Assembly: GCA_003605065.1 (NCBI GenBank)
Contig: QZJM01000063.1
Span: 12,485 to 76,484 of the forward strand
From: Dethiobacter sp.
GTDB taxonomy: Bacteria > Bacillota > Dethiobacteria > DTU022 > UBA8154
Length of the DNA stretch: 64,000 nt
Direction: 5' to 3'
Shown: piece after piece, positions 36,341-61,823 of the stretch
Layout of the letters: the number at the start of each line of letters is the position of its first letter
Position numbering within the stretch: position 1 is the first letter of the stretch
Position numbers and translations under genes: made by a program
Notes under the pieces: model-generated
What the model saw: the letters and a program-made list of their open reading frames with translations, nothing else
Database searches by the model: none
Told to the model about the DNA's origin: nothing

Positions 36341-36363
36341 TCCTTAGGTAAAGAGGTGGAAAA

Positions 36364-36927: not shown

Positions 36928-37064
36928 GGGCGTATTTCAATGCGCTCCACTTTATCTTTCACTGGCAAGCCTGGGGCCTGGGGCCCTCTTAATTGACAAA
37001 AAGAAGAGATTGTTGTAACTTTAAAGATGGACTTATTACTTTTTAGGGAGGGAAAGGAGAAAAA

Positions 37065-37232: not shown

Positions 37233-37260
37233 TGTTAAAGGGGATTAGATTATATCTTAA

Positions 37261-38517: not shown

Positions 38518-38561
38518 TTTAGATAAGGGCTCCAGGTTTATGTGATACAGGAGGTACGCTT

Positions 38562-40639: not shown

Positions 40640-40800
40640 GCAGGTAGAGTAAATTGTTTAAGTGGCTAAAAGCTCCTGGTGAAGCGAAGGCTGAAGGCGG
40701 ACCGGATGGCATGGATGCCAGCCGCCGAAAGGCGACTATGGATGGGAGTTCTGGAGGGGAGACCAGCCGGAGGCCTGAGATGAACCATGGAGCTTTCCAC
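40640..40800 (+). promoter_or_regulatory. candidate Moco (molybdenum cofactor) riboswitch in the GC-rich leader of mog/moaB
   Basis: Structured GC-rich leader (GCCGCCGAAAGGCGAC.., GGAGGGGAG near the 3' end) upstream of a Moco gene, the genomic context in which Moco RNA motifs occur. I cannot align it to the consensus here. Confidence 0.3.
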
Positions 40801-40876
40801 GAAAACACCTGAACGATACCTGTACGCTGACACACATTTTTATAATAGAGATTTTGACAAAAAGAGGTGGATACTT

Positions 40877-41410
40877 ATGGAAGAAATTCAGCAAAGCGTT
40901 CGTAAAATACAGGCGGCCATTCTAACTGCCAGTGACCGTAGTGCCCGGGGTGAAAGGGAAGATCTCAGCGGAAAAGTGATCGAAGAGATAGCCTGGTCAA
41001 ATGGTTGGGAAATTGTATGTTATGGTGTTGTTCCCGATGATAAAGAAACTATTAAGGTGGAACTGATAAGGCTGGCGGATAATGTAAAGGCTGATCTTGT
41101 CCTTACCACAGGTGGGACGGGGCTGGCTCCCAGGGATTTTACTCCTGAAGCTACACTGGAAATCATAGAAAAAGAAGTTCCCGGGATAGCTGAAACAATG
41201 AGAATGGAGAGCCTTAAAAAAACCCCTCATGCCATGCTCTCCCGTGCCGTCTGCGGAGTGCGCGGAAAAACTCTGATCGTAAACCTGCCGGGAAGCCCCC
41301 GGGCAGTAAGGGAATGCCTGGAGGTTATCCTGCCGGTTATCCCCCATGCTCTTCAGTTAATGCAGGGAGAGGTATCTGACTGCGGAACAACACTCCGCAT
41401 AAATAAATAA
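40877..41410 (+). CDS. mog: molybdenum cofactor biosynthesis protein MogA/MoaB family
   Basis: LTTGGTGLAPRD motif. Start at MEEIQQ (40877) rather than the ORF-track start at 40787. Confidence 0.8.
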   Translation: MEEIQQSVRKIQAAILTASDRSARGEREDLSGKVIEEIAWSNGWEIVCYGVVPDDKETIKVELIRLADNVKADLVLTTGGTGLAPRDFTPEATLEIIEKEVPGIAETMRMESLKKTPHAMLSRAVCGVRGKTLIVNLPGSPRAVRECLEVILPVIPHALQLMQGEVSDCGTTLRINK

Positions 41411-41505: not shown

Positions 41506-42036
41506 TTGGAAAAGCGGAAAGGTCTTGTTCTTGTTTATACCGGAAACGGGAAGGGAAAGACAACGGCGGCACTGGGCCTGGCCCTGAGGGCTATGGGGCA
41601 TGGCTGTCGCGTGTTTATGGTCCAGTTCAAAAAGGGAAATCCCGGTTACGGGGAAATCCAGGCCATTTATAAGTACCTGCCGGACTTCAAAGTTGTACAG
41701 TCAGGAAAAAATAAAATGTCTCCCGACGGGGTTCTTGCTGATGATGAGAACGGTGTTGTTTTAGATGGATTTAACCAGGGGAAAGAGGCGCTATGCAGCG
41801 GGGAATATGATCTGGTAATCTTTGACGAGATAAATGTGGTCATGGATCACGGGCAGCTTGCCGTTCAGGAAGTGACTGAGATGCTTTCCAGGCGCCCTGA
41901 ACACGTTGATGTTGTTTTAACCGGGCGTAATGCCCCTGAAGAAATAATTAATCTTGCCGATCTCGTCAGCGAGGTGAAAGAGATTAAACATCATTTCAAG
42001 GCGGGTGTTAAGGCCAGGGCGGGTGTGGAGTTTTGA
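41506..42036 (+). CDS. cobO: cob(I)yrinic acid a,c-diamide adenosyltransferase (CobA/CobO/BtuR family)
   Basis: YTGNGKGKTTAALG P-loop typical of the family. 176 aa. Confidence 0.85.
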   Translation: MEKRKGLVLVYTGNGKGKTTAALGLALRAMGHGCRVFMVQFKKGNPGYGEIQAIYKYLPDFKVVQSGKNKMSPDGVLADDENGVVLDGFNQGKEALCSGEYDLVIFDEINVVMDHGQLAVQEVTEMLSRRPEHVDVVLTGRNAPEEIINLADLVSEVKEIKHHFKAGVKARAGVEF

Positions 42037-42053
42037 CCAGAGAACATTCTCAA

Positions 42054-42872
42054 ATGAAAAAAAGAAAAATATCGTCTTCCTCCACGAAAAAATCCGACAA
42101 GAGCATACTCGGTAACAGGATAAGATCTTTCCGCGTTGAACGGGGGCTTACCCTGAATCAGCTTGCCGGTATGGCCGGGCTTTCGGCATCGTATTTAAGC
42201 ACGATTGAACGGGGCCTCAAAAAACCGTCAATTCCTGTGCTGAAACAGATTAGCGAGGCGCTCAATGTTTCTCCTTCTTTGCTTATTAGAACAGAGGAGG
42301 AAGCTTTTACGGGAAGTAAAATGCGTTTTCTTCGCGAGGGTAGAGGACTATCTGTAGAGGAACTTGCTGAAATCAGTGACATTCCGGCCCCAATGATTTC
42401 CAAATTTGAATCCGGTGAGGCTCAACCCGACTACGAACAACTGGAGCGCCTCGCTGAGGCTTTGAATTTAACGGCAACATGTTTTGTAGAAAAAAGCTAC
42501 TATAAGACGAGTATTGGTGACCGCCTGAAACAGCTCAGGGAAGCCCAGGGAATGACGCTTTCATTTCTGGCTGAAAAAGCTGGTGTTTCTCCTGGCCTGA
42601 TCAGCCAGATCGAAGGCGGTTATACCATCCCTTCCCTGGATACTCTGGAACGGATCTCTGTAGTACTGGGAACTTCACTTAATTATTTCTTACTTGAACA
42701 CGAGGAGGTAGAGAATCTTCTGACTTCCCTTGGGCCTGATTTACTCGAACTCCTCAGTGATCACAATGTCCAGGCTGTGCTGCGCTCCATTCGTGATTTT
42801 AATTCCGCAGAACTTCGTTATGTTCTTAATTATTTGCAATTTTTTAAAAGAAACCGCAAAATACTTTCTTAA
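42054..42872 (+). CDS. XRE-family transcriptional regulator with three tandem HTH_XRE domains
   Basis: Three repeats of the ~60-aa cro/C1-type HTH (IRSFRVERGLTLNQLA.., MRFLREGRGLSVEELA.., LKQLREAQGMTLSFLA..). Confidence 0.75.
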   Translation: MKKRKISSSSTKKSDKSILGNRIRSFRVERGLTLNQLAGMAGLSASYLSTIERGLKKPSIPVLKQISEALNVSPSLLIRTEEEAFTGSKMRFLREGRGLSVEELAEISDIPAPMISKFESGEAQPDYEQLERLAEALNLTATCFVEKSYYKTSIGDRLKQLREAQGMTLSFLAEKAGVSPGLISQIEGGYTIPSLDTLERISVVLGTSLNYFLLEHEEVENLLTSLGPDLLELLSDHNVQAVLRSIRDFNSAELRYVLNYLQFFKRNRKILS

Positions 42873-42986: not shown

Positions 42987-43015
42987 TTGACAAAATAAGA
43001 AGATTTTGCTATTAT
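42987..43015 (+). promoter_or_regulatory. consensus sigma-A promoter TTGACA-17-TATTAT
   Basis: TTGACA at 42987..42992, 17-nt spacer, TATTAT at 43010..43015. About 260 nt of AT-rich leader lie before the corrinoid protein gene. Confidence 0.5.
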
Positions 43016-43277: not shown

Positions 43278-43958
43278 ATGTCTGAAGAAAAACAAAAAGA
43301 ACTATTTGAGAGGTTAAAGCAAGGGGTTATCAATTATGATGAGGAAGAAGTAGCCAGCGCAGCCAAAACGGTCTTAGAAGAAGGGATTGATGCTGTAAAG
43401 GCGGTCTTTGAAGGCCTGGTGCCGGGTATGGAGCATGTTGGAGAACTGTATGAACAGCAGGAATATTTTGTTCCTGAACTTTTAATGTGTGCCGATGCCA
43501 TGTATGCCGGTCTCGATATCTTAAGGCCCCATATGTCCAAAAAAGACCTTGGCATTACAGGAGTTGTTGTCATGGGTGTTGTCCAGGGGGATGTTCACGA
43601 TATCGGCAAAAATATCGTCAGGATGATGTTCGATGTAGCCGGTTTTGAAGTACATGACTTGGGACGCGATGTTCCCCTGGAGGTTTTCGTGGAAGAGCAG
43701 CTTCGTACCGATGCCGATCTGGTTTGTTTGTCAGCGATGATGACCACCACCATGGTAGGGATGAAAGATATTATTGCCCAGATTAAAGCCAAAAACCCTA
43801 ACGCCAGGATTATGATTGGCGGCGCTCCTGTAACAGAAGAAATCGCCGAGAAGTTTGGAGCTGATGGTTATGCTGAAGATGCCAGTAATGCTTTGAAAGA
43901 CGCTATTAAAATGTTGAGCACGCTTAAAAAAATTCAGGAAGAAGCAGAAACAGCTTAA
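43278..43958 (+). CDS. cobalamin-binding corrinoid protein (methyltransferase cognate corrinoid protein)
   Basis: DxHxxG motif (GDVHDIGKN) plus a B12-binding Rossmann domain. 226 aa. Confidence 0.9.
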   Translation: MSEEKQKELFERLKQGVINYDEEEVASAAKTVLEEGIDAVKAVFEGLVPGMEHVGELYEQQEYFVPELLMCADAMYAGLDILRPHMSKKDLGITGVVVMGVVQGDVHDIGKNIVRMMFDVAGFEVHDLGRDVPLEVFVEEQLRTDADLVCLSAMMTTTMVGMKDIIAQIKAKNPNARIMIGGAPVTEEIAEKFGADGYAEDASNALKDAIKMLSTLKKIQEEAETA

Positions 43959-43989
43959 AGCAGAAATTGTTTTTTAAGGAGGAAACACG

Positions 43990-45933
43990 ATGGGGCACAC
44001 CGTTATTTTTCAGCCTTCCGGCAGGCGTGGCATTGTTGAAGCCGGAAAGAATCTTCTCGAGGCGGCACGCGAGCTGGGGGTGGATATTGAATCTCCCTGT
44101 GGGGGGTCTAAAGTCTGCGGTAAGTGTAAAGTAAAAATCGAGGAAGGGTTTTTTGAGAAATTTGGTATCGAATCCAGAATGAGCAGTCTTTCGCCCACGA
44201 TGGAAGAGGAGAAAGACGAACTGGAGAAGCAGGAATTGGAGAACAACTACCGGTTAGCATGTTGTGCCGAAGTCCAGGGAAATATCCTGGTTTTTGTCCC
44301 TGAAGAGTCCCGGGGTGCGCAGCAGGTGATCCTGGAAACCGGAAGAGAGAGGGAGATCTCTGTAGATCCTGCTGTCCGAAACTTTTATATTGAAATGGTC
44401 CCTGCAACTCTTCATGATCAGACCGACGATTTTGTTCGTATCAAGAATGCCCTGGAGGAAAAGTATGGACTTAAAGACATCGAATATATTGACTATCCTG
44501 TGGTTGTAAATCTTCCCGAGACTATTCGTTCTGCTAACTGGAAGGTGACGGTCAGCATCTGGAAAGGATGTGAAATAATCAAGGTTTCCTCCGGGCTGGT
44601 GGAAAACCCCTGGGGAATTGCCATTGATGTGGGCAGTACCACAGTGGCGGCTTACCTCTGTAATCTAAGGACTGGTGAATCTCCCGTGAAAAAATCCATG
44701 ATGAATCCCCAGATTACCTATGGGGAAGATGTCCTTTCCCGTATAACCTATACGATGATGAATGAAGACGGGCTGGAGAAAATGAGCAGGGCGATTATTG
44801 GAGGTATTAATTCTCTTGTAAAGGGGATTACAGAGGAGGCAGGTTTAACCCCGGAAGACATAATTGATATGGTTCTTGTGGGCAATACGGCTATGCATCA
44901 TCTTCTCCTGGCTATTGATCCCAAATATGTCGGTCGTGCTCCTTTTGCACCGGCGCTAAAATGCGGTATTGATTTCAAGGCGCGCGATCTCGGCATAAAC
45001 ATTAATAAAAATTCGTATGTGCACTGGCTGCCCATTGAAGCAGGTTTTGTCGGTGCGGACAACGTTTCGGTGCTCATTGCCGAGGAACCATATAATCAGG
45101 ACAAGATGATGCTGGTTATAGATATCGGTACCAATGGAGAAATTGTTTTCGGCAACAGGGAAAAGCTTTTTTCAACATCCTGTGCAACAGGCCCTGCCCT
45201 GGAAGGAGCACAGATTGCCTTTGGTATGCGTGCCGCTCCTGGGGCTATTGAATGGGTAAAGATTGATCCGGAAACGAAAGAGCCACAATTTAAAGTTATC
45301 GGTCAAAATGACTGGTATAAAGAAGGTGACGAACCCCTGGCTAAGGGGATTTGTGGCTCCGGTATCATTGACGTTATTGCGGAAATGTTTAAGGCCGGGG
45401 TTATTGAAAAATCGGGCCGTATTAACCAAAAAATCGACAGCCCCAGAATTCGTAAAAAGGCCGACGGTAAAATGGAGTATGTGCTCTGTTATGCCCATCA
45501 AACTTCCATAGGAAAGGATATTACTGTTACACAGGGAGACGTCCGTGCTGTGCAGCTGGCCAAAGCAGCTCTCTATTGTGGTGCTGAGTATCTCATTGAA
45601 AAGCGCGGCATGGAAAAACCGGATCAAATTGTGCTTGCAGGTGCTTTTGGCAGCTATATTAATAAGGAAAGCGCCATGGTTATGGGCATGATTCCTGACT
45701 GTGATCTGGACAATGTCCAGGCGGTGGGGAATGCCGCCGGTGACGGAGCCAAGCTGGCTCTCTTGAGCATGCAAAAACGCCGGGAAGCTGAGACAGTAGC
45801 CAGGTTTGTGGAGTTTATTGAAACAGCTACAGAACCAGATTTCCAGCCCCGGTTTGCGGAAGCTATGGCTTTTCCCCACAGAAGCCACCTATTTCCCAGC
45901 ATCCAGCATATTCTTGATAAAATTCCCAAGTAA
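43990..45933 (+). CDS. corrinoid activation/regeneration protein (RACo/RACE-like: N-terminal 2Fe-2S ferredoxin plus ASKHA ATPase domain)
   Basis: CGG..CGKC plant-type 2Fe-2S motif at the N-terminus. 647 aa. Confidence 0.8.
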   Translation: MGHTVIFQPSGRRGIVEAGKNLLEAARELGVDIESPCGGSKVCGKCKVKIEEGFFEKFGIESRMSSLSPTMEEEKDELEKQELENNYRLACCAEVQGNILVFVPEESRGAQQVILETGREREISVDPAVRNFYIEMVPATLHDQTDDFVRIKNALEEKYGLKDIEYIDYPVVVNLPETIRSANWKVTVSIWKGCEIIKVSSGLVENPWGIAIDVGSTTVAAYLCNLRTGESPVKKSMMNPQITYGEDVLSRITYTMMNEDGLEKMSRAIIGGINSLVKGITEEAGLTPEDIIDMVLVGNTAMHHLLLAIDPKYVGRAPFAPALKCGIDFKARDLGININKNSYVHWLPIEAGFVGADNVSVLIAEEPYNQDKMMLVIDIGTNGEIVFGNREKLFSTSCATGPALEGAQIAFGMRAAPGAIEWVKIDPETKEPQFKVIGQNDWYKEGDEPLAKGICGSGIIDVIAEMFKAGVIEKSGRINQKIDSPRIRKKADGKMEYVLCYAHQTSIGKDITVTQGDVRAVQLAKAALYCGAEYLIEKRGMEKPDQIVLAGAFGSYINKESAMVMGMIPDCDLDNVQAVGNAAGDGAKLALLSMQKRREAETVARFVEFIETATEPDFQPRFAEAMAFPHRSHLFPSIQHILDKIPK

Positions 45934-45983
45934 TTGGATTTTTAGATTTCGGATTAAAAAGAAAACAAAGGTGGGTACGTAAG

Positions 45984-46928
45984 ATGTTTACCATAACAAA
46001 AGAACAAAAGGTTTGCCAGATTGGCCCTTGGACGATTGGCGGGCAGCCGGGCGATAATCCTCCGCTGTTGATTGCCTCCATGTTTCATAAAGGCGATCGC
46101 ATCCTGGAAAAGCGGAAGGAAGGAAAATTCGATCGCGTAAAGGCGGCTGACTACATCAAACGGCAGGAGGAGCTTTCTGAACAGACAGGGATCCCTGCTC
46201 TTACTGCCATGGTGGCCAATTCTGCCGATGAGATGAAGCGCTATATAGATTTTTACACCGGGTTGAGCAGTAAGCCCTTTGCCGTTGACATGTGGATGCA
46301 GGACCCTCGTGTTGAAGCTGTAAAATACGTCGCGGAGCTCGGCTTAACTGACCGGCTCCTTTATAACAGCATTACTCCCTGGGATAAGGATATTCCCGGA
46401 CAGGTGGCCATGCTTAAAGAGCTGGGTGTCAAGCATGTTGTTGTCCAGGTCTATGATGATAATGATCCTACTCCACAGGGAAGGGTTTCCAGTTTTCGCA
46501 GGATGATGGATATGATCGGTGAGGATAATTTTGAAACGATCCTGGTGGATACCTCCGTGATGAACCTGCCTGCTACTTCCTTTTCGTCTGTGGCAAACAG
46601 GTTAATTAAGGAAGAATTCGGGGTTCCGGTAGGCCTGGCTTCATCAAACGGCACTTTTATGTGGAAGGCGGCCCGCGAAATGTGGGGAGACGAAGGCTTT
46701 TCCTCCATGAACGTGGCGGGGCAGGCAGTGGCGACTATGTTCTGGTGTGATGCCATCTTTTACGGGCCGCAGGTTATAGCACCGCGTGTTTTCCCCGCGG
46801 TGGTAAGTGCAGCGTTAATGCTGGCCACATTTGTTTACCAGGAAACAAACAGTTTGCCATCCAATCCCAATCACCCCCTGTATAAATTTTTCGGAGACTT
46901 TGTGGAAAAGTTGAAGGCCGGTAAATAA
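45984..46928 (+). CDS. MtrH-family methyltransferase (methylcobamide:tetrahydrofolate/pterin methyltransferase, MT II type)
   Basis: 314 aa. Overall resemblance to tetrahydromethanopterin S-methyltransferase subunit H homologs used as MT II in bacterial O-demethylases. Confidence 0.7.
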   Translation: MFTITKEQKVCQIGPWTIGGQPGDNPPLLIASMFHKGDRILEKRKEGKFDRVKAADYIKRQEELSEQTGIPALTAMVANSADEMKRYIDFYTGLSSKPFAVDMWMQDPRVEAVKYVAELGLTDRLLYNSITPWDKDIPGQVAMLKELGVKHVVVQVYDDNDPTPQGRVSSFRRMMDMIGEDNFETILVDTSVMNLPATSFSSVANRLIKEEFGVPVGLASSNGTFMWKAAREMWGDEGFSSMNVAGQAVATMFWCDAIFYGPQVIAPRVFPAVVSAALMLATFVYQETNSLPSNPNHPLYKFFGDFVEKLKAGK

Positions 46929-47063
46929 AAAAAGGAAAGGTAAAAAATCAGTGGCTAAATTTGACAGACAACGGGTTCAGGAATTAACTAATGTATCTGG
47001 TTCCTAAAAGAATAGCAACGTAAATAGTGATAAATTAAAAAAATCAATAGGGTGGTGCGATAA

Positions 47064-48134
47064 ATGACTTTAACATCAAAAGAACGGGTATTAAACCAGC
47101 TACAGGGCAAGGAGATAGACCGGGTGCCCTGCTACAGCGGGATGGGCAATGTTACAGTAACGGGGTTGAAACAACTGGGCTACAGGTTCCCCCATGTGCA
47201 CAGCGACGCCGAAAAAATGGCCAAACTGGCGGCTACTTCATACAAGCTGTTTGGCTATGAGTGCGCTGTGGTTCCCTTTGATTTCTGCCTGGAGGCAGAA
47301 GCGCTGGGTTGTGTGATAAATCCTTACGAGGATGTAGAGCACCTTCTTTACCCTACCATCAAGGAGAAAGCTATACACAGCGAGGCGGAGATGGCCACTT
47401 TTCCCGTCCCGGAAGACTTAGAAAATGTTGGCCGGGTTCCTGTAGTAGTCGAGGCCATCCGGCGTTTGAAAGAGGATATCGGAGATAAAGTAGCTGTGGG
47501 CACATATTTCACTGCCCCCTTTACTTTGGCTGGTCAAATTTTTGATCTGGACCAGCTCTTTAAGCTATCCTTCAAAAAACAGGATCTTGTTGGCCAAATG
47601 CTCGACAGGCTCGCCGATGTCCTTATCGAACTGGGTAAAATTTATCGTGATGCCGGGGCCGATTATATTAACGTGCGTGAAATGGGGGCAACGACGGATA
47701 TCTTAAGTCCCCGCAGCTTTAAATCCTTGATTTTGCCTCCTCTCCAGAAAATTCATGCCGCGTTAAGTGCTTTAGGAATTCCCAATATCCTGCACATTTG
47801 TGGAGCGACTAATGCTATTGTTCCACTTATGATTGAAGCTGGTGCTGATGCTATTACCGTTGAGGTTAAAAACAATATGCTGAAAACAAGGGAAGATATT
47901 GGTTTTGAACCACTTGTTTTCGGCAATCTTGATGCTTATAAATTATTTGTCCATGACAGCGTGGAGGATGTGGAAAAAGCTGTTATAACTGCTCTGGAGC
48001 AGAGTGTCGACGCTATATGGCCCGGCTGCGATATCTGGCCTGAGGCCAAGCCGGAGAACTTTAAAGCTATGGTCGAGGCTACGGAAAAATATGGCGCGGA
48101 AAAATGGGTGCGCAAACAAAAGTCCGCATCGTAA
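47064..48134 (+). CDS. uroporphyrinogen decarboxylase (URO-D) family methyltransferase (MtaA/MtbA/OdmB-like MT I)
   Basis: 356 aa. URO-D fold signatures (ERVLNQLQGKEIDRVP..). Confidence 0.8.
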   Translation: MTLTSKERVLNQLQGKEIDRVPCYSGMGNVTVTGLKQLGYRFPHVHSDAEKMAKLAATSYKLFGYECAVVPFDFCLEAEALGCVINPYEDVEHLLYPTIKEKAIHSEAEMATFPVPEDLENVGRVPVVVEAIRRLKEDIGDKVAVGTYFTAPFTLAGQIFDLDQLFKLSFKKQDLVGQMLDRLADVLIELGKIYRDAGADYINVREMGATTDILSPRSFKSLILPPLQKIHAALSALGIPNILHICGATNAIVPLMIEAGADAITVEVKNNMLKTREDIGFEPLVFGNLDAYKLFVHDSVEDVEKAVITALEQSVDAIWPGCDIWPEAKPENFKAMVEATEKYGAEKWVRKQKSAS

Positions 48135-48163
48135 TGTCATAAATTATGGAGGAGGTAAATAAA

Positions 48164-49192
48164 ATGTCGGCAATGACTGCAAGGGAACGTTTTTTAAACA
48201 AGCTGGCAGGAAAGGAAACTGATCGTGTTCCTGTTTTTTGTGCTGATCAAACGGGAACTTATGAACAGATGGATAACTTACGGTCTTTTTGGCCGGAAGC
48301 CCATCAGAAGGCCAAAGAAATGGCCGGGCTGGCCCTGGGCGCCTTTACTGTTGCGGGCTTTGATGCTGTAAGAGTTCCGTTCTGCCAGACAATTGAGGCC
48401 GAGGCACTGGGAGCGGGCATAAAATATGCAGGAAAAGAGGGGATCCCCAGTGTTAACGTCCACCCCTACAAGCTGGGTGAGCCTGTCGGACCTCTTCCGG
48501 AGAATTTTTTAGAACGGGGCAGAATACCGGAATTAATTGAGGCGGTAAGGATCTTGAAACGTGAAGTGGGGGATCAGGCTGTTATTATTGGCGGCATCAT
48601 TGGGCCTTTCAGTATTGCCGCCAGCCTGATTGGTATTACCGATATTTTGAAGGCAGCTTTTAAGACCCCGGAAAAGGTTAAACCTTATCTGGACCTTGCC
48701 GGGGAAGCGGGAACAACTTTAGGAAAAGCCTTAATCGAAGCCGGAGCGGATTTGATCTGTGTTGAGGATATGATGGCCTCTATGGATATGATTAGCCCCA
48801 AAATTTACAGGGAACTGGTGGCTCCCTGGGAAACAAGGCAAAATGCCGCTTTATCCGTGCCCGTTATTCTTCACATTTGTGGAAAGACCGATATAATTAT
48901 TGACGATATGGCCAATACAGGAGCCAGTATACTCAGTGTCGAACCAAAAGTTGATGCACCTGCTGCTAAGGAAAAATTAAAAAAATACGACCGCTTTATT
49001 CCTCTAATCGGTGGTGTGGATGCCGTAACAACACTCTTTTCCGGCAGCGAGGAAGAAGTTGTACAGGAGACGATTAAAGCTATCAATCAGGGTTACGACA
49101 TGATTGCACCCGGTTGTTCCATCGCTCCTGGCTCCCCTGTCGTTAATTTACGGGCGATGATCAAAGGCGCTACCCTGGCAAAGGAACAGTAA
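48164..49192 (+). CDS. URO-D family methyltransferase, paralog
   Basis: ATG at 48164 after GGAGGAGG. ARERFLNKLAGKETDRVPVF parallels the upstream paralog. Confidence 0.8.
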   Translation: MSAMTARERFLNKLAGKETDRVPVFCADQTGTYEQMDNLRSFWPEAHQKAKEMAGLALGAFTVAGFDAVRVPFCQTIEAEALGAGIKYAGKEGIPSVNVHPYKLGEPVGPLPENFLERGRIPELIEAVRILKREVGDQAVIIGGIIGPFSIAASLIGITDILKAAFKTPEKVKPYLDLAGEAGTTLGKALIEAGADLICVEDMMASMDMISPKIYRELVAPWETRQNAALSVPVILHICGKTDIIIDDMANTGASILSVEPKVDAPAAKEKLKKYDRFIPLIGGVDAVTTLFSGSEEEVVQETIKAINQGYDMIAPGCSIAPGSPVVNLRAMIKGATLAKEQ

Positions 49193-49271
49193 AATAGGCC
49201 CGGTGTTAAAATAAATATCCGCAGTCTTTTCAGCGAAAAACATCACCTTTTTATTTAGTATAATTTCTGGC

Positions 49272-50009
49272 ATGGGAAAGAGCTGTGGAGAACGGGTGAT
49301 ATTTGTGAGAGTTAAAATTCCGTATCCATTTTTGGACTTTGAAAATTTGGATTTACAGATTAAAAAAATGGGTGCTGATCTGGTGGGATTTGGTGATGTG
49401 AGTTCCGGCCTTGCTCCTGAATTTTCTCATATTCCCAAAGCCATTGCCCTTGGCATTAAGTATCCGGTATTTGAGGTAGATATTAATAAACCAAATTGTT
49501 TTTTGGAACGGTGCTTTTCCATCGATAAGCGTTTGCAGGAGATTCAGAAAAAAGTTGCGGCAATTTTAAGAAATAACGGCTGGCGGGCGTTGCTAATCCC
49601 CCCGGACTCTCACCGGGAAATCTCCAGTTTTATTGCCAGGTTGTACCATTTATTTCCTCACAAAACAGCAGCTACTTGCTCCGGGCTTGGCTGGATCGGC
49701 AAAAACGGGCTGTTGATCAGTCAGGAATTCGGGCCGCGTTTGAGCTGGGCTACAGTTTTAACGGATGCACCCCTTTTGCTAACCCCTTATCCTATTACTA
49801 TCAGCCACTGCGGTAATTGCCGCTATTGTGTGGACGCCTGCCCGGCTGGAGCCATTCGTAACGTTCTCTGGGAGCGGAAGAACAGTTATGAACCTTTAAT
49901 TGATGTACAGCGCTGCTTTGCCCAGTTGCAAAAAAACCAGGAACTCTACGGGCATTTTTCCTGTGGGGTTTGCGTACTGGTTTGCCCGCAGGGTATATCA
50001 CAAAAGTAA
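49272..50009 (+). CDS. QueG-like (epoxyqueuosine reductase-like) 4Fe-4S protein
   Basis: GLGWIGKNGLLIS..FGPRLSWA and two Cys clusters (CGNCRYCVDACP; CGVCVLVCP) resemble the QueG C-terminal region. The ORF is shorter than canonical QueG. Confidence 0.55.
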   Translation: MGKSCGERVIFVRVKIPYPFLDFENLDLQIKKMGADLVGFGDVSSGLAPEFSHIPKAIALGIKYPVFEVDINKPNCFLERCFSIDKRLQEIQKKVAAILRNNGWRALLIPPDSHREISSFIARLYHLFPHKTAATCSGLGWIGKNGLLISQEFGPRLSWATVLTDAPLLLTPYPITISHCGNCRYCVDACPAGAIRNVLWERKNSYEPLIDVQRCFAQLQKNQELYGHFSCGVCVLVCPQGISQK

Positions 50010-50061: not shown

Positions 50062-50090
50062 TTGACAAAATTAACTTTACTTTATATAAT
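50062..50090 (+). promoter_or_regulatory. consensus sigma-A promoter TTGACA-17-TATAAT upstream of the cobalamin riboswitch
   Basis: TTGACA at 50062..50067, 17-nt spacer, TATAAT at 50085..50090. Confidence 0.55.
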
Positions 50091-50179
50091 TAAAGACAAC
50101 ATAAACTTTACTGTTACTAAATATTTTAACACTTAGAGTTGTTAATAAATATGTTAAATATACTTGGTAATGATTCGGG

Positions 50180-50336
50180 TGCTTCTCTTTCACCTGGAGA
50201 AGATAATAGGGAACCAGGTGTAATTCCTGGGCGGTCGCGCCACTGTGAAGGGAGAGCTTATTTCAGAAAGGTCACTGGATAAAATCCGGGAAGGCAGAAA
50301 TAAGCTATGACCCCAAAGTCAGGAAACCTGCCCGTT
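50180..50336 (+). promoter_or_regulatory. cobalamin (B12) riboswitch
   Basis: AATAGGGAACCAGGTGTAATTCCTGG, B12 box GCCACTG (50239..50245), CCGGGAAGGCAG, and AGTCAGGAAACCTGCC all match conserved blocks of the cobalamin riboswitch. Confidence 0.85.
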
Positions 50337-50423
50337 TCATAGTACATAAAAAAACCTTCTTCGCGTTAAGGGAGGGGTAATTAACATATTAAAACTCGCG
50401 CGGATAAGGTGGTATTATTTAAA

Positions 50424-50667: not shown

Positions 50668-51006
50668 ATGCCTCTTAAAAATGTTATAGAAGCCAAAAAG
50701 CAGAAAGGGGAAAAAATTGATAATAAAGTAAGATATATCCAGAAACATAAACCCATATTTTCAGTGCTTGAAAAAATTAAGCTTTGGCCTTCAAGTTCAG
50801 GTATCTTACATGGTATTAAACATTTAACCAGGGATGGCAATTATATAGTAATTGAAACACATTGTCATGAGCAGATAAAGGTAAGGATATCAAAAAACAG
50901 CCGAGCTGCAAGGTGGCTGAGGAACAAGTGGGCTGAAAGGGTATGTACTGTTTGTCGTATTCCGTCCTGGAAAGTTAATAAGTATCTAAATACATCGTTT
51001 AAATAA
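50668..51006 (+). CDS. pylSn: pyrrolysyl-tRNA synthetase N-terminal tRNA-binding domain protein
   Basis: 112 aa. Matches the bacterial PylSn free-standing domain. Directly precedes pylSc. Confidence 0.85.
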   Translation: MPLKNVIEAKKQKGEKIDNKVRYIQKHKPIFSVLEKIKLWPSSSGILHGIKHLTRDGNYIVIETHCHEQIKVRISKNSRAARWLRNKWAERVCTVCRIPSWKVNKYLNTSFK

Positions 51007-51018
51007 GTGGAGGCATTA

Positions 51019-51834
51019 ATGAAGTTTACTCATGTGCAAATACAACGTCTTATTGAACTTGGTTTAAATACCGGCCTTGAGTATGAATTTGCCAATAGTA
51101 TTGAAAGGGAAGCAAATTTTAAGCAACTGGAAAAAGAACTAGTCAAACAAAACAAAGCTGCATTAAAAAGATTGCATGAAGAGAAACGTCCTTTGCTTAA
51201 AACTGTAGAACAAAAACTTATTGGTGTTTTAACTGAAAATGGATTTATTGAAGTAATCACACCTATTTTAATGTCCAGGGGCTTGCTGGAAAAGATGGGA
51301 TTAACTCCTGAATTATTTCGACAGGTGTTTTGGGTTGATGAGGGGAAAAAAAGGTGCTTGCGCCCAATGCTGGCTCCTCATTTATACTACTTGTTAAGAA
51401 AAATGAAAAAAATATGGCCTGCTCCCCTGAAAATATTTGAAGTTGGACCGTGTTTTCGCAAGGAGTCAAAGGGAGGGTACCATATGGAAGAATTTACCAT
51501 GTTGAATCTGGTGTGCTTTAGCTGTACTGAACCCCTTGCTGAGTTGCTGGATCTGGCTGATAAACTGCTTGACCCTTTTAATATACCATTTAACATTACT
51601 GATGAGTATAGTGAAGTTTACGGCCGGACGATTGATATAGTAGTAAATGATGTAGAAATTGCTTCTGCCGCGGTTGGCCCGCATGAGCTTGACAAAAACT
51701 GGGATATTACCGGCAGCTGGTATGGAATCGGTTTGGGATTGGAACGTTTGGCTATGGTTCTCCAGGGGTATCAAAATATAAGGCGCGTGAGCAGGAGTTT
51801 AAGTTACCAAGATGGGGCCCGCCTTAATATTTAG
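51019..51834 (+). CDS. pylSc: pyrrolysyl-tRNA synthetase catalytic domain (class II aaRS core)
   Basis: Class II motifs (FRKESKG..; GIGLGLERL). ATG at 51019 after GTGGAGG. Stop is TAG. Confidence 0.9.
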   Translation: MKFTHVQIQRLIELGLNTGLEYEFANSIEREANFKQLEKELVKQNKAALKRLHEEKRPLLKTVEQKLIGVLTENGFIEVITPILMSRGLLEKMGLTPELFRQVFWVDEGKKRCLRPMLAPHLYYLLRKMKKIWPAPLKIFEVGPCFRKESKGGYHMEEFTMLNLVCFSCTEPLAELLDLADKLLDPFNIPFNITDEYSEVYGRTIDIVVNDVEIASAAVGPHELDKNWDITGSWYGIGLGLERLAMVLQGYQNIRRVSRSLSYQDGARLNI

Positions 51835-51867
51835 AGTTGCACTTAAAACGGGGGTATATTTTTAAAA

Positions 51868-55208: not shown

Positions 55209-55280
55209 GGAGGGTTGATCGGCAGGATCACGTAGACTCTAAATCTGCGCAGCCGGGTTTGACTCCCGGACTCTCCTCCA
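55209..55280 (+). tRNA. pylT: tRNA-Pyl (anticodon CUA), encodes CCA
   Basis: GGAGGGT..ACTCTCC 7-bp acceptor stem. 6-bp anticodon stem CGTAGA/TCTGCG with loop CTCTAAA. A single nucleotide separates the acceptor and D stems. Short variable loop. T-arm CCGGG-TTTGACT-CCCGG. These are all hallmark pylT features. Confidence 0.85.
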
Positions 55281-55368: not shown

Positions 55369-56014
55369 GATGAGTAAAGAAATTCTGGCCAAATTACAAC
55401 GTGCTGTCGAAGAACAGGATGTGGAAGCCGCTGAGGCTGCGGCCCGTGAAGCAGTTGCCGCAGGGATCGATCCCTTTGTGGCTATCAACGAGGGCCTATC
55501 TCCCGCTATGCAGACCATTAGTGATCTGTTTGATGACGGAGAACTGTATGTGCCCCAGATTTTGTTTGCGGCAGAGGCTTTTATGAATGCCATGGCTATC
55601 CTGACAGAAAAGCTTTCGGCAGAAGAAGTAAGCAAAACTAAGCGCGGCAAAGTTATCGTGCATACAGTCCAGGGAGATATCCATGACATCGGAAAAAATA
55701 TTGTCGGCACAATGTTAACAGCCAACGGCTTTGAAGTAATTGACCTGGGCCGCGATGTTCCGATTGATGTGGTTGTGGAGAAAGCAAAAGAGCTCGGAGT
55801 AGACATGGTTACCGGTTCGGCGCTTATGACCACCACTATGCCATCCCAAAGGGATATTGTTAAGGCACTCGACGAAGAAGGTATCAGGGGAAAAGTCAAA
55901 TGCATGTTTGGTGGTGCCCCGGTTACTAAGGAGTGGGTCGACCAAATCGGTGCCGATGGTTATGCAAGTAACGCCTCTGAAGCGGTAATTGTAGCGAAGG
56001 AACTTATGGGTTAA
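55369..56014 (+). CDS. mtmC: monomethylamine corrinoid protein
   Basis: GDIHDIGKNIV DxHxxG motif. Strong similarity to archaeal MtmC across the full length. RBS GGAAGGAGG. The ORF-track start at 55259 overlaps pylT and is rejected. Confidence 0.9.
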
Positions 56015-56042
56015 AAAAATCTTTAAGAAAGGAGTGAGAAGA

Positions 56043-57422
56043 ATGTCTAATGTTCCCAAGGTTGGGGTATTTGAAGCCTATGCCAGGGCAACTACAGGAC
56101 CACGCGTCCCTGAAAAAGACTGGGACTACAAAATCATTCCCCAGGCCGCCAGCCGCCTGAAGGAAAAATACGGCATCAAAATGGATAAAAGGAAGATGAT
56201 TCCCACAGATGAAAATCTAATAAACAATCTCTTCAGGGCAGGCATGGAAATGCTGGTGGAATGTGGAGTTTACTGTATGGATACTGGGCGGGTTATCAAG
56301 TACACCGAAGAAGAAGTCTGGACGGCCGTTAAAAATGCCCCCAGGTGTTTAACGCTCGGTGAAGGCCGTGATTCAAGAGAACTCAAAGGGCGCAGGTATG
56401 ACGACAGCAGGCCGCCTATCATCCAGGGGGGACCTACCGGAGCACCGGTAGCAGAGCAGGACTTTGTAGCCATGCACGAAGCCTATGCCCGTGAGCCGAT
56501 CGTCGATACCATTGTTGACGGTGTTATGCAGACGATCAATGGCTACGATCCGAGGCCTAACACCCCCTTCGAAATTGCGGCGGTCAAGAACGAAGCGATG
56601 ATGATTAGACTGGCACAGGTCCGTGCCGGTCGCCCGGGGATGGGATTGTAGGGCAACGAAACTTCACTCAGTGCCGCAGGGGTTATCGCTGCTGATTTTC
56701 CCGGCGGCATGAGGGCATCAGATAGCCATGAAGTTTCCCAGCTGAACGAGCTGAAGATAGATGTAGGTGCACTATCTTTTGTTGCTCACTATGTTTTGGC
56801 TGGAGATATCATCATGTGTGAACAGATGCCCATCTTGGGAGGCTATGCAGGTGGTCTGGAGGAAACGACCATTGTTGACGTTGCCACCACGCTGAATGCC
56901 TTCCTAATGACACAGGCGCACTGGCATCTTGATGGCCCGATCCATGTGCGGTGGGGGATTACCACGGCCAGAGAAGTGCTGGCGGTAGCCGGCCACTGTG
57001 CACGGGCAATCGAGGAAAATACACATTTACTTCTTGGTAACCAGTATTATACATTGGCCGGTCCCTGCACGGTAATGTGCCTGTTGGAAACGGCAGCCCA
57101 GTCTATCACCGATACAGCCAGCGGCCGGGAACTTGTTTCCGGGGTAGCCTCGGCCAAAGGAGTGGCCACAAACTATACTACTGCCATGGAAGCCCGCTTC
57201 ATGGGTGAAGTGGCCCATGCTGTAGCCGGGATGGATTTAGAAAAGGTTAACGGGATTCTTGATGAGCTGGTAGGTATGTACGAGACCCAGTACAAGACAG
57301 CTCCCAAAGGAAAAACTTTCAATGAGTGCTATGATCTTGTCAGGTTGACTCCTTCTGACGAGTACATGCAGGTTTATAAAGAGGCGTGGGGGATTTTAAA
57401 TAAACTCGGCCTCAAGTACTAA
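56043..57422 (+). CDS. mtmB: monomethylamine methyltransferase with in-frame UAG (56649..56651, codon 203) decoded as pyrrolysine
   Basis: Two same-frame ORFs (56034..56651 and 56709..57422) are separated only by TAG. Flanking sequence ..GMGL-UAG-GNETSLSAAG.. and ..DSHEVSQLNELKID.. matches archaeal MtmB around its Pyl codon. pylT and pylSBCD are in the same locus. Confidence 0.9.
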
Positions 57423-60173: not shown

Positions 60174-60185
60174 GGAGGCTTGGAG

Positions 60186-61823
60186 ATGAACAAAATTGGT
60201 ATTGCCCTGGATTTGGGGACCAGCGGTTTTCGAGGACAGGCCATCGACTTGTCTGCGAATGCGGTTTTAAAAACAGTAATAACTGCCCGTCATCCCCTGC
60301 CTGGCGCAAACGTGATGGATCATCTCAACTTTGCCATTATGGCTGGGCCGGATGTAGCTCACCAGATCATCATGGCTACAATAAACCAGATTATAGATCT
60401 GCTAAATATGCCCGGTTTCGCCATTGAGTGTTTTGCCGTTTGCGGCAACCCGATTCAACTTTCCCTCTTTGAAAATATTGAAATCAGGGATTTGGCCTAT
60501 GCGGGTGAAAATTACCGCCGCCAGCTGGGGATTGTCTCTCCTGATCGCAGCAGCAAGGAATACCCGGCTGAGCGGTTTCCACTGTTAAACTTACCGGGGA
60601 ATTGCCTGGTTTTTATTCCCCCTGCTGTAAAACATGAAATAGGGGCAGATGCTCTGGCCATGTTGATTCTTTCCGGAATTCTGGATAAGGAAGAAATTTG
60701 CCTGGCTACCGATTACGGGACAAATGCTGAAATGGCTCTGAAAGTGGGAGATAAAATCATTACCGGTTCTGCCGCTGCCGGCCCTGCTCTGGAAGGACAG
60801 CATGTTGAGAACGGGATGCTGGCTGCACCTGGGGCCATTTCTGACCTCCGACCGGAAAACGGCGGCTACCGTTGTCTTGTTCTCAATACTGAGATGCAGC
60901 CTGAGGACGGAGATTTACTTACTCTTGACAATGGAACTGTACTTCAAAAGGGCCGGTTAGAGGCCAAAGGAATAACCGGAACGGGTGTAATAGCAACAGT
61001 TTCACAGGGTATGGACAGCGGCCTGGTAAGCCTTCCCAATATTAAAACTGCTAGCGGCTCACTGCATCTTTCCAACGGGATTCGTTTTAGTAAGAAGGAC
61101 TTAATCGAAGCCGGGAAGGCTATCGGCGCAATCCGGGCCGGTTACCTCACACTGGCCGCTGAGGCAGGAGTCTCTGTAGAAGATATCCGTGTTGCTTTTA
61201 TGGCCGGTGCATCGGGAACTTATGTGGATGCACGTAAAGCGATGAACATCGGCATGGTTCCTCCTAAGGTAAAGGAAATATATCAGGTTGGTAATACTTC
61301 CTTGTTGTTGGCAAGAGAAATTGTGCAGGATCCCCGGAGATTAAAAACTCTTGATGAAATTGCCCGACAGTTACGGGCAAGACATTGTATGTTTGGTCTT
61401 TCCAAGGTTTTTGAAAAGGCTTATTTGCTGGAGCTTTCATACTGGACGGAAGGCCTCCCATGGGAACTTTATAAAAAATACGCCAGAATGTACCAGCTTC
61501 CGGAGTTGCCGCAGCTTCACACCGATGTAAATGTTACTAAAAAGGTCACCCGTGATATAAGGGATATTGGGAAAGATGGCTTGATCACCATAGAGAGAGT
61601 CGGTGAAGAAAGACACTGGTTTGTACCCGGGTGTGTCAACTGTGGCCAGTGTGTAGAAGAATGCCCTGAAAATGCTATAAAGCTCGATGATACTCTGGGC
61701 GTTGTGATGCGCATGGACTGCTGCAGTGGAACTGCCTGCCAGCGCTGTGAGCATATTTGTCCGGAAAAAGTTTTTCGTCTTTCAGAATTTTGGATGAACT
61801 CTTTAAAAATTAGCTGTGATTAG
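60186..61823 (+). CDS. ramA: RamA-like corrinoid reductive activase (ASKHA ATPase plus C-terminal 2x[4Fe-4S] ferredoxin domain)
   Basis: ATG at 60186 after GGGAGG. C-terminal CVNCGQCVEECP and C..C..CQRCEHICP clusters. Confidence 0.8.
   Translation: MNKIGIALDLGTSGFRGQAIDLSANAVLKTVITARHPLPGANVMDHLNFAIMAGPDVAHQIIMATINQIIDLLNMPGFAIECFAVCGNPIQLSLFENIEIRDLAYAGENYRRQLGIVSPDRSSKEYPAERFPLLNLPGNCLVFIPPAVKHEIGADALAMLILSGILDKEEICLATDYGTNAEMALKVGDKIITGSAAAGPALEGQHVENGMLAAPGAISDLRPENGGYRCLVLNTEMQPEDGDLLTLDNGTVLQKGRLEAKGITGTGVIATVSQGMDSGLVSLPNIKTASGSLHLSNGIRFSKKDLIEAGKAIGAIRAGYLTLAAEAGVSVEDIRVAFMAGASGTYVDARKAMNIGMVPPKVKEIYQVGNTSLLLAREIVQDPRRLKTLDEIARQLRARHCMFGLSKVFEKAYLLELSYWTEGLPWELYKKYARMYQLPELPQLHTDVNVTKKVTRDIRDIGKDGLITIERVGEERHWFVPGCVNCGQCVEECPENAIKLDDTLGVVMRMDCCSGTACQRCEHICPEKVFRLSEFWMNSLKISCD

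Follow-up and report, generated by a model that had tools for sequence, protein, structure and literature searches.

The operon considered here lies within a 64,000-nt stretch of DNA from Dethiobacter sp. (contig QZJM01000063.1 of assembly GCA_003605065.1, positions 12,485 to 76,484 of the forward strand), and we refer to this whole stretch as the window and give all coordinates in its numbering. Six co-directional genes on the + strand (43278-50009), with intergenic gaps of 11-135 nt, encode in order a corrinoid protein, a RACo-type reductive activase with a 2Fe-2S domain, an MtrH-family methyltransferase, two URO-D-family proteins that we call URO-D#1 and URO-D#2, and a QueG-like iron-sulfur (FeS) protein. 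A pyrrolysine (Pyl)-dependent monomethylamine gene island follows downstream, and the family matches across the operon and the island have E-values from 1e-20 to 1e-97, far above chance. An earlier reading of the sequence (the original prediction) had described these six genes and had recognized a complete corrinoid methyl-transfer operon, with a URO-D-family methyltransferase, a corrinoid protein, an MtrH-family methyltransferase, and a RACo-type activase, and the Pfam and NCBIfam matches bear out both points. It also proposed that the operon encodes a phenyl methyl ether O-demethylase with two methyltransferase I (MT I) paralogs, and here our reading is different: we consider it fairly probable that two units of anaerobic methylotrophy are joined in this operon, and that it is not an aryl methyl ether O-demethylase.

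Gene content of the operon

Domains were called with Pfam and with NCBIfam/TIGR and PRK profile models using curated cut-offs, and RNA elements with Rfam. The first gene (43278..43958, +) encodes the core corrinoid (cobalamin-binding) methyl-carrier protein, which matches Pfam B12-binding_2 (E 9e-23) and B12-binding (E 3e-27), has the DxHxxG motif within 'GDVHDIGKN', and scores 204.8 bits with TIGR02370, slightly below the cut-off of 215.3. It is followed by the ATP-dependent reductive activase of the RACo type (43990..45933, +), whose N-terminus has a 2Fe-2S domain (Pfam matches to Fer2, RACo_linker, Raco_middle, and RACo_C_ter, with E 2e-97 for the last) and which scores 483 bits with the AcsV-like model NF040756, below its cut-off of 800, and by the MtrH-family methyltransferase (45984..46928, +; PF02007, E 6e-51). 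The two URO-D genes come next. URO-D#1 (47064..48134, +) is a predicted zinc methyltransferase of the MtaA/CmuA family, resembling coenzyme M methyltransferases of the soluble type (SCMTs), and URO-D#2 (+) is of the MtaA/MtbA type; both match PF01208 at E ~4e-68. The two are 34% identical over 342 residues, which is slightly under the 35-40% that had been estimated by eye.

The longest open reading frame (ORF) for URO-D#2 spans 48146-49192, but the true start is probably the ATG at 48164, giving a gene at 48164..49192. This codon lies behind a GGAGGAGG ribosome-binding site, 29 nt after URO-D#1, and the 100%-identical database protein is 342 residues long and begins at this second ATG; an exact look-up with the 348-residue form gave no match. 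The last gene of the operon (49272..50009, +) encodes a small protein with two [4Fe-4S] motifs (Fer4_16, E 3e-11) that is a relative of the QueG and reductive dehalogenase (RDH) core. Its matches to the RDH and QueG models (E 2e-14 and 8e-13) are both below cut-off, and residues 133-239 match the QueG structure 5d6s at E 5e-11.

The two URO-D proteins

By the curated models both URO-D proteins fall in the MtaA/CmuA branch of their superfamily. URO-D#1 and URO-D#2 score 241.1 and 281.3 bits with TIGR01463 (MtaA/CmuA; cut-off 235.4) and 261.9 and 327.6 bits with PRK06252 (cut-off 244), while both miss the narrower equivalogs for MtaA_Meth (244.6 and 329.5 against 400) and MtbA (180.4 and 250 against 600). 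The original prediction had raised the possibility that they are bona fide uroporphyrinogen decarboxylases (HemE), and this identity is ruled out by hemE scores of 68 and 35 bits, far below the equivalog cut-off of 303. URO-D#1 is identical (100%) to an NCBI protein annotated 'MtaA/CmuA family methyltransferase'. The closest solved structure to either protein is Methanosarcina mazei MtaA (4AY7), with 161 bits for URO-D#1 (32% identity) and 233 bits for URO-D#2 (37% identity), against 40 bits or less for UROD entries. An AlphaFold2 model of URO-D#1 (mean per-residue confidence, pLDDT, 90.8) superimposes on MtaA (4AY8/4AY7) with template-modelling (TM) scores of 0.88-0.93 and a root-mean-square deviation of 1.9 Å, compared with a TM score of ~0.8 for UROD. 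In a neighbour-joining tree of 150 URO-D ORFs, URO-D#2 lies next to M. mazei MtaA and URO-D#1 is sister to that pair.

The motifs 'LHICG' and 'PGC' of both proteins align on the zinc ligands of MtaA (His-x-Cys...Cys). The three ligand positions are invariant in each group: H244, C246, and C322 of URO-D#1 are present in all 21 sequences of its alignment and in all 86 clade members recovered from related loci, and H237, C239, and C318 of URO-D#2 are invariant in the URO-D#2-family alignment. S-methyltransferases of the UroD superfamily carry this His-Cys-Cys site, whereas O-demethylases replace one or both of the cysteine ligands (PMC10418091). The likeness to the methanogen enzymes MtaA, MtbA, and MtsA thus includes the fold, at least as modelled for URO-D#1, the zinc site, and a sequence identity of 32-37%, which is at the level that these enzymes share with one another, the methanogen proteins being mutually only ~30% identical (PMC10418091). 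There are also differences, in that the host is a bacterium without known coenzyme M, the MtaA and MtbA equivalog cut-offs are missed, and URO-D#1 has an MtrH-like enzyme and a RACo-type activase as its partners, an arrangement not described for methanogen SCMTs. Taken with the model cut-offs, the similarity to MtaA, the His-Cys-Cys site, and the published trees discussed below, both URO-D proteins are probably SCMT-like enzymes acting on sulfur and not aryl O-demethylases.

This assignment bears directly on the substrate class originally predicted for the operon, namely a four-component phenyl methyl ether O-demethylase in which the two URO-D proteins are MT I enzymes of differing methoxy-aromatic specificity. 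The component list does fit the general scheme of the aryl O-demethylases (OdmABCD and VdmABCD of Acetobacterium dehalogenans, those of Desulfitobacterium hafniense, and MtvABC of Moorella thermoacetica), which share the four-component logic of a UroD-superfamily MT I, a corrinoid protein, a tetrahydrofolate (THF)-side methyltransferase, and a 2Fe-2S RACo-type activase. A corrinoid protein with a RACo-type activase is a feature of O-demethylase systems without being specific to them, and the archaeal Mto system also combines two URO-D-family genes with an MtrH-like methyltransferase II (MT II) (PMC8630106). However, the aryl enzymes belong to another MT I clade with other or absent zinc ligands, act on O-methyl substrates, and employ an MT II of the AcsE/MetH family (4O1E; PMC13222342), and the invariant zinc site of both groups, the MtaA/CmuA thresholds that both pass, and their 32% and 37% identity to MtaA place the proteins elsewhere; a published SCMT-like protein is only ~17% identical to OdmB and VdmB (PMC10418091). 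The methoxy-aromatic MT I enzymes MtvB and MtoB likewise form a cluster separate from TIGR01463 proteins in a published tree (PMC8630106, Fig. 1b). Our PDB sequence search (E up to 10; entries to 2026-04-08) and a Foldseek search of the PDB returned only MtaA and UROD matches, with no O-demethylase MT I or CdmB. No aromatic-acid transporter adjoins the operon, and orthologs of its genes are induced by methanol in the only ortholog expression data, in which methoxy-aromatics were not among the conditions (PMC5770442). We regard an aryl O-demethylase as very improbable at this locus.

The MtrH homolog

The third gene product passes the MtrH family model NF002142 (362 bits against 287) and misses both the Mtr-complex equivalog TIGR01114 (159 against 271) and the MtgA equivalog (155 against 550). 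Its matches in the PDB include 8z9u (E 2e-49) and the methylcorrinoid:THF methyltransferase of D. hafniense, 6sj8 (135 bits, E 3e-38); a PDB search with this protein returned MtrH and MtgA entries, and 4O1E was not found. Among the neighbours of the gene there are no mtrA-G genes. Membership of a membrane-bound Mtr complex, an alternative that had been flagged at the outset, is ruled out by the sub-threshold equivalog score together with this neighbourhood. The protein is probably a soluble methylcorrinoid:THF methyltransferase, with THF as the likely pterin because of the similarity to 6sj8 and the bacterial host.

The nature of this enzyme further separates the operon from the architecture of phenyl methyl ether O-demethylases in acetogens and Desulfitobacterium to which it had been likened. 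The MT II proteins of those organisms (OdmD, VdmD, MtvA, MtqA, bacterial 'MtaA', and CdmA) are grouped with AcsE and MetH as pterin-binding enzymes and modelled on 4O1E (PMC13222342), and their architecture therefore excludes MtrH. MtrH-type MT II enzymes are instead known from MtgA and from archaeal MtoA (PMC8630106 for Mto), so that the MT II of the operon differs from the bacterial O-demethylase form and fits the archaeal Mto form. The glycine betaine system MtgABC of D. hafniense (6SJ8) resembles the operon in having a soluble MtrH homolog as MT II beside a small corrinoid protein, and MtoABCD of Methermicoccus shengliensis, which acts on methoxy-aromatics, in having an MtrH-like MT II, a corrinoid protein, a 2Fe-2S RACo-type activase, and two URO-D-family genes (PMC8630106). 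Both depart from it in MT I, which is the MttB-family MtgB or the MtvB-like MtoB rather than an SCMT-like His-Cys-Cys protein, and the MtgA equivalog is, as noted, missed.

The pyrrolysine and monomethylamine island

A complete Pyl-dependent monomethylamine set lies downstream of the operon, comprising MtmB with its UAG codon and PYLIS element, a corrinoid protein, RamA, tRNA-Pyl, and pylS, pylB, pylC, and pylD. The monomethylamine methyltransferase gene mtmB (56034..57422, +) has one in-frame UAG (pyrrolysine) codon at 56649-56651, the Rfam PYLIS_1 match (56649-56748, 91 bits) begins at this codon, and the product is 68-85% identical to MtmB of most related loci. The mtmC-type corrinoid protein gene (55370..56014, +) starts at ATG 55370 behind a GGAGG site; its product passes TIGR02370 (252 bits against 215) and is 41% identical to the core corrinoid protein of the operon. 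A RamA-type activase with a C-terminal 4Fe-4S domain (60180..61823, +; RACo_C_ter, E 6e-62, and Fer4) is 47-71% identical to RamA-type genes beside MtaBC and Mtm/Mtb/Mtt genes in related loci.

The pyl genes are arranged unusually, in the order pylSn-pylSc-pylB-pylD (50668-53861), an Amt-family gene, tRNA-Pyl (55209-55280), mtmC, mtmB, a DUF2284 gene, a family-less ORF of 166 residues (58220-58720), and last pylC (58977-60173); tRNA-Pyl is thus ~90 nt 5' of mtmC and not beside pylS. The Amt-family membrane protein (53964-55133) scores 77.6 bits with the ammonium transporter model against a cut-off of 343, and its location, with pyl genes on one side and mtmC on the other, marks it as a candidate transporter of methylammonium. 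A cobalamin riboswitch (50160..50349, +; RF00174, 122.7 bits, E 3e-30) marks the 3' boundary of the operon and opens the pyl transcription unit. It lies directly 5' of pylSn, which suggests a link between B12 availability and the expression of the pyrrolysine machinery, and a perfect TTGACA-17-TATAAT sequence (50062-50090, +) lies upstream of it. A homolog search of the window for MtaB, MtbB, MttB, DUF6951, PNPOx, DGC, GcvH, and CbbQ/VWA proteins found none.

The related system of Desulfofundulus kuznetsovii

The nearest system with expression data is that of the methanol-oxidizing sulfate reducer Desulfofundulus (Desulfotomaculum) kuznetsovii 17, where the genes run in the order Desku_0050 (URO-D#2 type), MtaB, MtaC, CobW, RamA, Desku_0055 (a further URO-D), corrinoid protein, RACo, MtrH, a PNPOx-like protein, and Desku_0060 (URO-D#1 type). 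This region (Desku_0050-0060; PMC5770442) shares with the window cobA, a regulator with three helix-turn-helix (HTH) domains, both URO-D types, the corrinoid protein, RACo, and MtrH; the QueG-like FeS gene comes next, as seen in the related strain TPOSR (locus L003). Window URO-D#2 is 60% identical to Desku_0050, which lies beside MtaB and MtaC, and URO-D#1 is ~59% identical to protein P0226 of strain TPOSR, the counterpart in strain 17 being the 350-residue Desku_0060. RACo and MtrH are 65% and 66% identical to those of D. kuznetsovii, and the core corrinoid protein is 69% identical to the Desulfofundulus copies, one of them identified by tblastn where Desku_0056 should lie (L001) and the other in TPOSR. 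The differences are that the substrate methyltransferase (MT1) is MtaB/MtaC there and Pyl-dependent MtmB/MtmC here, that the URO-D#2 gene is beside MT1 there and inside the module in the window, and that a PNPOx-like gene separates MtrH from URO-D#1 there and none does so in the window.

On methanol with cobalt, the log10 label-free quantification (LFQ) values of Desku_0050, 0051 (MtaB), 0056 (corrinoid protein), MtrH (F6CLN2), 0059, and 0060 rise from ~6 to ~9.4 (PMC5770442, supplementary file 3), an increase on the order of 1000-fold, and they fall again without cobalt (PMC5770442). In the published account the URO-D proteins were taken as 'MtaA' transferring methyl groups to THF, and MtrH, the second corrinoid protein, and RACo were given no role (PMC5770442). 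Strain TPOSR is without MtaB and keeps the corrinoid protein, RACo, MtrH, PNPOx, URO-D, and FeS proteins, a set that is only slightly induced (PMC10907483); in the work on this strain, too, the URO-D protein goes under the name 'MtaA'.

Genomic partners of URO-D#1 and URO-D#2

A scan of species-representative genomes with the URO-D#1 alignment gave 476 relatives, and the best 80 loci were kept. These come from Bacillota (Dethiobacter, Desulfofundulus, Thermincola, Desulfosporosinus, and Formimonas) and, in ~30 cases, from Nitrospirota/Thermodesulfovibrionales; the closest are from Dethiobacter, other Dethiobacteria-like metagenome-assembled genomes, and Ca. Contubernalis alkaliaceticus. Neighbours were counted by tblastn mapping within 6 kb of URO-D#1 at those 46 of the best 80 loci that extend at least 5 kb to either side. 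The corrinoid protein is present at 98% of these 46 loci, MtrH and RACo each at 96%, the QueG-like FeS protein at 72%, DUF6951 at 70%, and a second, distant His-Cys-Cys URO-D protein at 57%, compared with 11% for URO-D#2. URO-D#1 is a fixed component of a core with MtrH, the corrinoid protein, and RACo, and the QueG-like FeS protein is, as judged from its recurrence beside these genes, a conserved accessory of this core.

URO-D#2 follows a different rule. In the same scan its relatives occur almost only where MT1 is present, with MtaB at four loci (L001, L020, L036, and L043) and with MtmB in the window and at three others (L034, L044, and L048), and every locus with a tblastn-detected MtaB or MtmB also had URO-D#2. 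In the reciprocal test, a metagenome scan with the URO-D#2 alignment gave 54 loci of at least 5 kb, to which three look-ups (L085-L087) were added; MtaB, MtmB, MtbB, or MttB is found in 37 of the 54 and also in the three look-ups, and among the 54 there are pyl genes in 15, RamA in 22, and MtrH in 5. The partnership with MtmBC or MtaBC, RamA, and pyl genes is a further likeness to methanogen MtbA and MtaA, and from this conserved MT1 neighbourhood and the homology to MtaA/MtbA, URO-D#2 is probably a bacterial MtaA/MtbA-type methyltransferase (MT2) for methanol and methylamine systems, in the window serving the Pyl-dependent MtmBC 6 kb downstream. In the window and its closest relatives the URO-D#2 gene is inserted within the module, between URO-D#1 and the FeS gene.

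URO-D#1 and URO-D#2 are thus two distinct orthologous groups with different genomic partners, and not the pair of MT I paralogs that was first proposed. A recent duplication is also ruled out, because they sit in different clades that are each conserved across phyla. The companion suggestion that MtmBC lacks an MT2 of its own does not hold, since homology and gene neighbourhood mark URO-D#2 as that enzyme, and the proposed service of the operon to MtmBC is plausible in this form, through URO-D#2, while the particular route first envisaged, with MtrH acting directly on MtmC, becomes a minor alternative.

In that alternative, CH3-MtmC (or CH3-MtaC) would be the direct methyl donor for MtrH acting on THF, in the manner of MtgA with MtgC, and the URO-D proteins would be alternative MT2 isoenzymes (compare MtaA and MtbA) or accessories for side reactions. 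The MtrH family does hold proven methylcorrinoid:THF methyltransferases (6sj8), MtrH homologs beside MttBC have long been proposed as the THF methylase in Sporomusa (PMC4031174), and the original prediction made the same suggestion. Against this, the core's own corrinoid protein and RACo, tied to MtrH and URO-D#1 in 96-98% of loci, would be left unexplained, and the pairs of MT1 and corrinoid protein are accompanied by URO-D#2 and not by MtrH (37 versus 5 of 54 loci). We consider this route distinctly improbable.

The type 1 mlp clusters of anaerobes (PMC10418091) also group several SCMT-like URO-D proteins that have the His-Cys-Cys site, among them Mlp2 and Mlp3, with a corrinoid protein and a reductive activase of the bacterial type, and a methyl-sulfur or methyl-selenium function has been proposed for them (PMC10418091). 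Those clusters have no tetrahydrofolate methylase, whereas an MtrH gene is within the operon and at 96% of the module loci, and membership of the type 1 mlp clusters is therefore rejected.

Several variations in the surroundings of the core are apparent among the related loci. In Nitrospirota (L051-L084; e.g. L058, 6031-20210) the order is fixed, with a distant His-Cys-Cys URO-D protein, an AhpD-like protein, MtrH, URO-D#1, the corrinoid protein, the FeS protein, RACo, and DUF6951, followed by two HdrD-like CCG proteins and a pyridoxal phosphate (PLP) enzyme; a NarI-like membrane protein precedes these last genes in some loci. The Thermincola core (L017, 11260-14460) is followed by a NitT/TauT-type ABC transporter. 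Dethiobacteria-type relatives (L002, 3403-9820; L004, 11432-18359; L006, L007, and L009-L014) have after URO-D#1 a gene block, absent from the window, for two DGC-domain proteins, a GcvH-like protein, a 310-residue URO-D protein without His-Cys-Cys (F/Y-C-gap), a radical SAM protein, and a dihydrolipoamide-dehydrogenase-like flavoprotein, with a second GcvH in L002 and L004; this block might be a lipoyl- or thiol-protein-linked methyl-transfer system. Another His-Cys-Cys URO-D clade, of ~355 residues, also occurs near the core (L003, 13013-20242; L004, 288-5702; L023, L035, L055, and L072), mostly accompanied by a CbbQ-like AAA ATPase, a large VWA protein, and DUF2284, which may be a metal-insertion or maturation set.

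Regulation and surrounding genes

Immediately upstream of the operon are a gene for a CobA/BtuR-family ATP:corrinoid adenosyltransferase (41506..42036, +; CobA_CobO_BtuR, E 6e-58; TIGR00708, 172.8 bits against a cut-off of 167.75) and one for a regulator with three HTH_3 (Xre-type) domains (42033..42872, +; three stretches matched by Pfam HTH_3, E 5e-47). In the tblastn neighbour mapping, cobA is again upstream of the core module at seven loci (L001, L005, L008, L010, and L012-L014), and orthologs of the regulator, with 41-89% identity, adjoin the module in D. kuznetsovii (L001) and many Dethiobacteria-type loci; this protein probably controls the operon. A promoter-like site lies 5' of the corrinoid protein gene (42987..43015, +; TTGACA-17-TATTAT, 11 of 12 matches with an extended TG), identified as a consensus match only. 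Promoter and terminator scans of the region gave site totals no higher than expected from shuffled sequence or chance, and the two best promoter matches (42987-43015 and 50062-50090) are suggestive from their positions alone.

Directly upstream of cobA are genes for a three-subunit 2-oxoacid:ferredoxin oxidoreductase and two MoeA proteins, one fused to a periplasmic-binding-protein-like domain (34537-40487), and a MoaB/Mog-like gene (40787-41410). An unrelated catabolic cluster (18933-25090) encodes a UbiD-family decarboxylase, two family III CoA-transferases, and a two-subunit ADP-forming CoA ligase, and a TAXI-type TRAP transporter (25753-29112) follows it. The segment 29681-31150, of lower G+C (0.41-0.46), has a truncated phage-integrase-family ORF (183 residues) and a C-terminal ornithine cyclodeaminase-family fragment (169 residues), which suggests a past insertion or rearrangement between two metabolic islands. 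A T-box leader (RF00230, 100.7 bits; 4472-4747) lies 5' of an ORF at 4730-5821. At the other end, the window cuts off an ORF of at least 656 residues (62033-64000) that carries at its C-terminus the Fis-type HTH of sigma-54 activators; L002 and L017 have comparable GAF-PAS-sigma54 regulators beside the module.

Discussion

The distribution of partners suggests how the two units may be put together. The first is the core, consisting of the corrinoid protein, RACo, MtrH, URO-D#1, and the QueG-like FeS protein. As a His-Cys-Cys zinc methyltransferase of the MtaA/MtbA/MtsA type, URO-D#1 would move methyl groups from sulfur (or selenium) to the cobalt of the corrinoid protein or back, with the sulfur substrate deduced from this site; MtrH would exchange them between the corrinoid protein and THF, and RACo would re-reduce the corrinoid protein once it is oxidized. 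The second unit would be URO-D#2, as the MT2 that demethylates the methylated MtmC produced by Pyl-containing MtmB. URO-D#2, too, is a His-Cys-Cys enzyme, and the simplest arrangement that finds a use for all components is therefore a relay, in which the methyl group of monomethylamine would pass through MtmB to MtmC, kept active by RamA, and then via URO-D#2 to a thiol carrier, giving CH3-S-X. URO-D#1 would transfer it from CH3-S-X to the core corrinoid protein, kept active by RACo, and MtrH from there to THF, with CH3-THF entering the Wood-Ljungdahl pathway. Two successive corrinoid steps would agree with the presence of two corrinoid proteins whose activases are of different classes, RamA in the case of MtmC and RACo in that of the core protein. 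Such a relay would be a soluble analogue of the methanogen route from methyl-coenzyme M through Mtr to methyl-tetrahydromethanopterin (H4MPT). The full wiring, with its sulfur substrate, its direction of transfer, and its coupling of the two units, we hold to be possible rather than probable.

Several considerations weigh against the relay or against parts of the assignment that leads to it. Thioether-to-pterin transfer is strongly uphill, with methyl-coenzyme M to H4MPT requiring about +30 kJ/mol, and the easy thermodynamic direction is from THF to the thiol; a soluble relay would therefore need extreme ratios of substrate to product, and this is its main weakness. These bacteria are not known to make coenzyme M, and the carrier X is hypothetical. 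Most URO-D#2 loci are without an MtrH core within 10 kb, and coupling is therefore not obligatory as far as adjacency goes; conversely, most URO-D#1 cores occur without MtaB or MtmB, and the core therefore has a function of its own. In D. kuznetsovii, one long operon may be all that lies behind the co-induction. The exclusion of both URO-D proteins from the O-demethylase clade rests on profile thresholds, zinc ligands, similarity to MtaA, and published trees, our own tree being without OdmB, MtvB, and MtoB.

The independence of the core could also mean that it is a separate catabolic system for a methylated sulfur or selenium compound, with URO-D#1 as MT I acting on methanethiol, dimethyl sulfide, methylmercaptopropionate, a methylated sulfonate thiol, or a sulfonium compound, and with the corrinoid protein, MtrH, and RACo carrying the methyl group to THF; URO-D#2 would then be an unrelated MT2 with an acceptor of its own. 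In its favour are the many cores without URO-D#2 (found at only 11% of the 46 loci), MtaB, or MtmB, and the core of strain TPOSR, which is without MtaB (PMC10907483); the His-Cys-Cys site is common to MtsA-type enzymes (PMC10418091), and the second, distant His-Cys-Cys URO-D protein in 57% of cores would suit two demethylations, e.g. of dimethyl sulfide and then methanethiol. The flanks of the core in Nitrospirota and Thermincola, with AhpD-like proteins at 32 loci, HdrD-like CCG proteins at 26, PLP enzymes at 24, and the NitT/TauT-type ABC transporter, form a thiol, disulfide, and sulfonate context that supports sulfur chemistry, in this scheme as in the preferred one. However, transfer to THF is equally uphill in this scheme, the URO-D#2 gene sits inside the module, 29 nt past URO-D#1, in the window and its closest relatives, the D. 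kuznetsovii orthologs answer to methanol and not to an added sulfur compound, and the acceptor of URO-D#2 is not accounted for. We regard an independent sulfur or selenium system as rather unlikely, though it is the strongest of the alternatives.

The thermodynamic difficulty disappears if the core runs in reverse as a split counterpart of methionine synthase, with the methyl group passing from CH3-THF through MtrH, the corrinoid protein, and URO-D#1 to a thiol, sulfide, or selenide, the outcome being biosynthesis, detoxification, or a volatile methyl sulfide. Transfer in that direction is favourable, and the set of components mirrors the modules of MetH (pterin, B12, zinc-thiol, and reactivation). 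Foldseek with the URO-D#1 model also lists the zinc-homocysteine barrels of MetE, weakly, at TM scores of 0.52-0.59, and the related SCMT-like protein ClMlp2 was active in vitro in methylating selenide and sulfide (PMC10418091). The strong induction by methanol, together with MtaBC, in a methanol-oxidizing sulfate reducer nonetheless points to methyl groups entering catabolism, the module lies within islands of methylotrophy and pyl genes, and there is no obvious reason to spend methyl-THF during methylotrophic growth. Reversal of the core thus appears improbable, and the joining of two methylotrophic units, with URO-D#2 serving MtmBC and the core delivering methyl groups to THF, remains our preferred reading.

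By orthology to genes already present in D. kuznetsovii proteomes, the genes themselves are not new. What is new is that an SCMT-like methyltransferase with a His-Cys-Cys site is combined with a THF methyltransferase of the MtrH type and with RACo, a QueG-like FeS protein, and a corrinoid protein of its own, a set without a characterized example. Known combinations are those of an MttB-family MT I with MtrH (Mtg), of an MtvB-like MT I with MtrH (Mto), and of an SCMT with a corrinoid protein and no pterin enzyme (Mts and the type 1 mlp clusters), and a literature search on MtrH with MtaA, on sulfate reducers, and on Nitrospirota found no description of the module as a conserved unit.

Methyl transfer from methanol and methylamines to THF in non-methanogenic anaerobes is usually assumed rather than shown, and the 'MtaA' homologs of these organisms carry annotations as THF methylases although they retain the zinc-thiolate site known from coenzyme M methyltransferases. 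In the window and ~130 related loci, one 'MtaA' homolog is hard-wired to an MtrH-type enzyme with its own corrinoid protein and activase, and the other follows the substrate-specific methyltransferases, in a module that is widespread in Bacillota and Nitrospirota. Recognition of this arrangement sets right the tempting but mistaken annotation of such a module as a lignin-methoxy demethylase. We tentatively propose that bacteria without coenzyme M could run a thiol-mediated methyl relay, in which URO-D#2 loads a putative thiol and an Mtr-like soluble module moves the methyl group on to THF. If true, this would imply a new bacterial methyl-carrier thiol and a cytoplasmic counterpart of the membrane-bound Mtr reaction, and the scheme bears on subsurface sulfate reducers, alkaliphilic Dethiobacteria, and Nitrospirota, and on the turnover of methylamine, methanol, and methyl-sulfur compounds in anoxic habitats.

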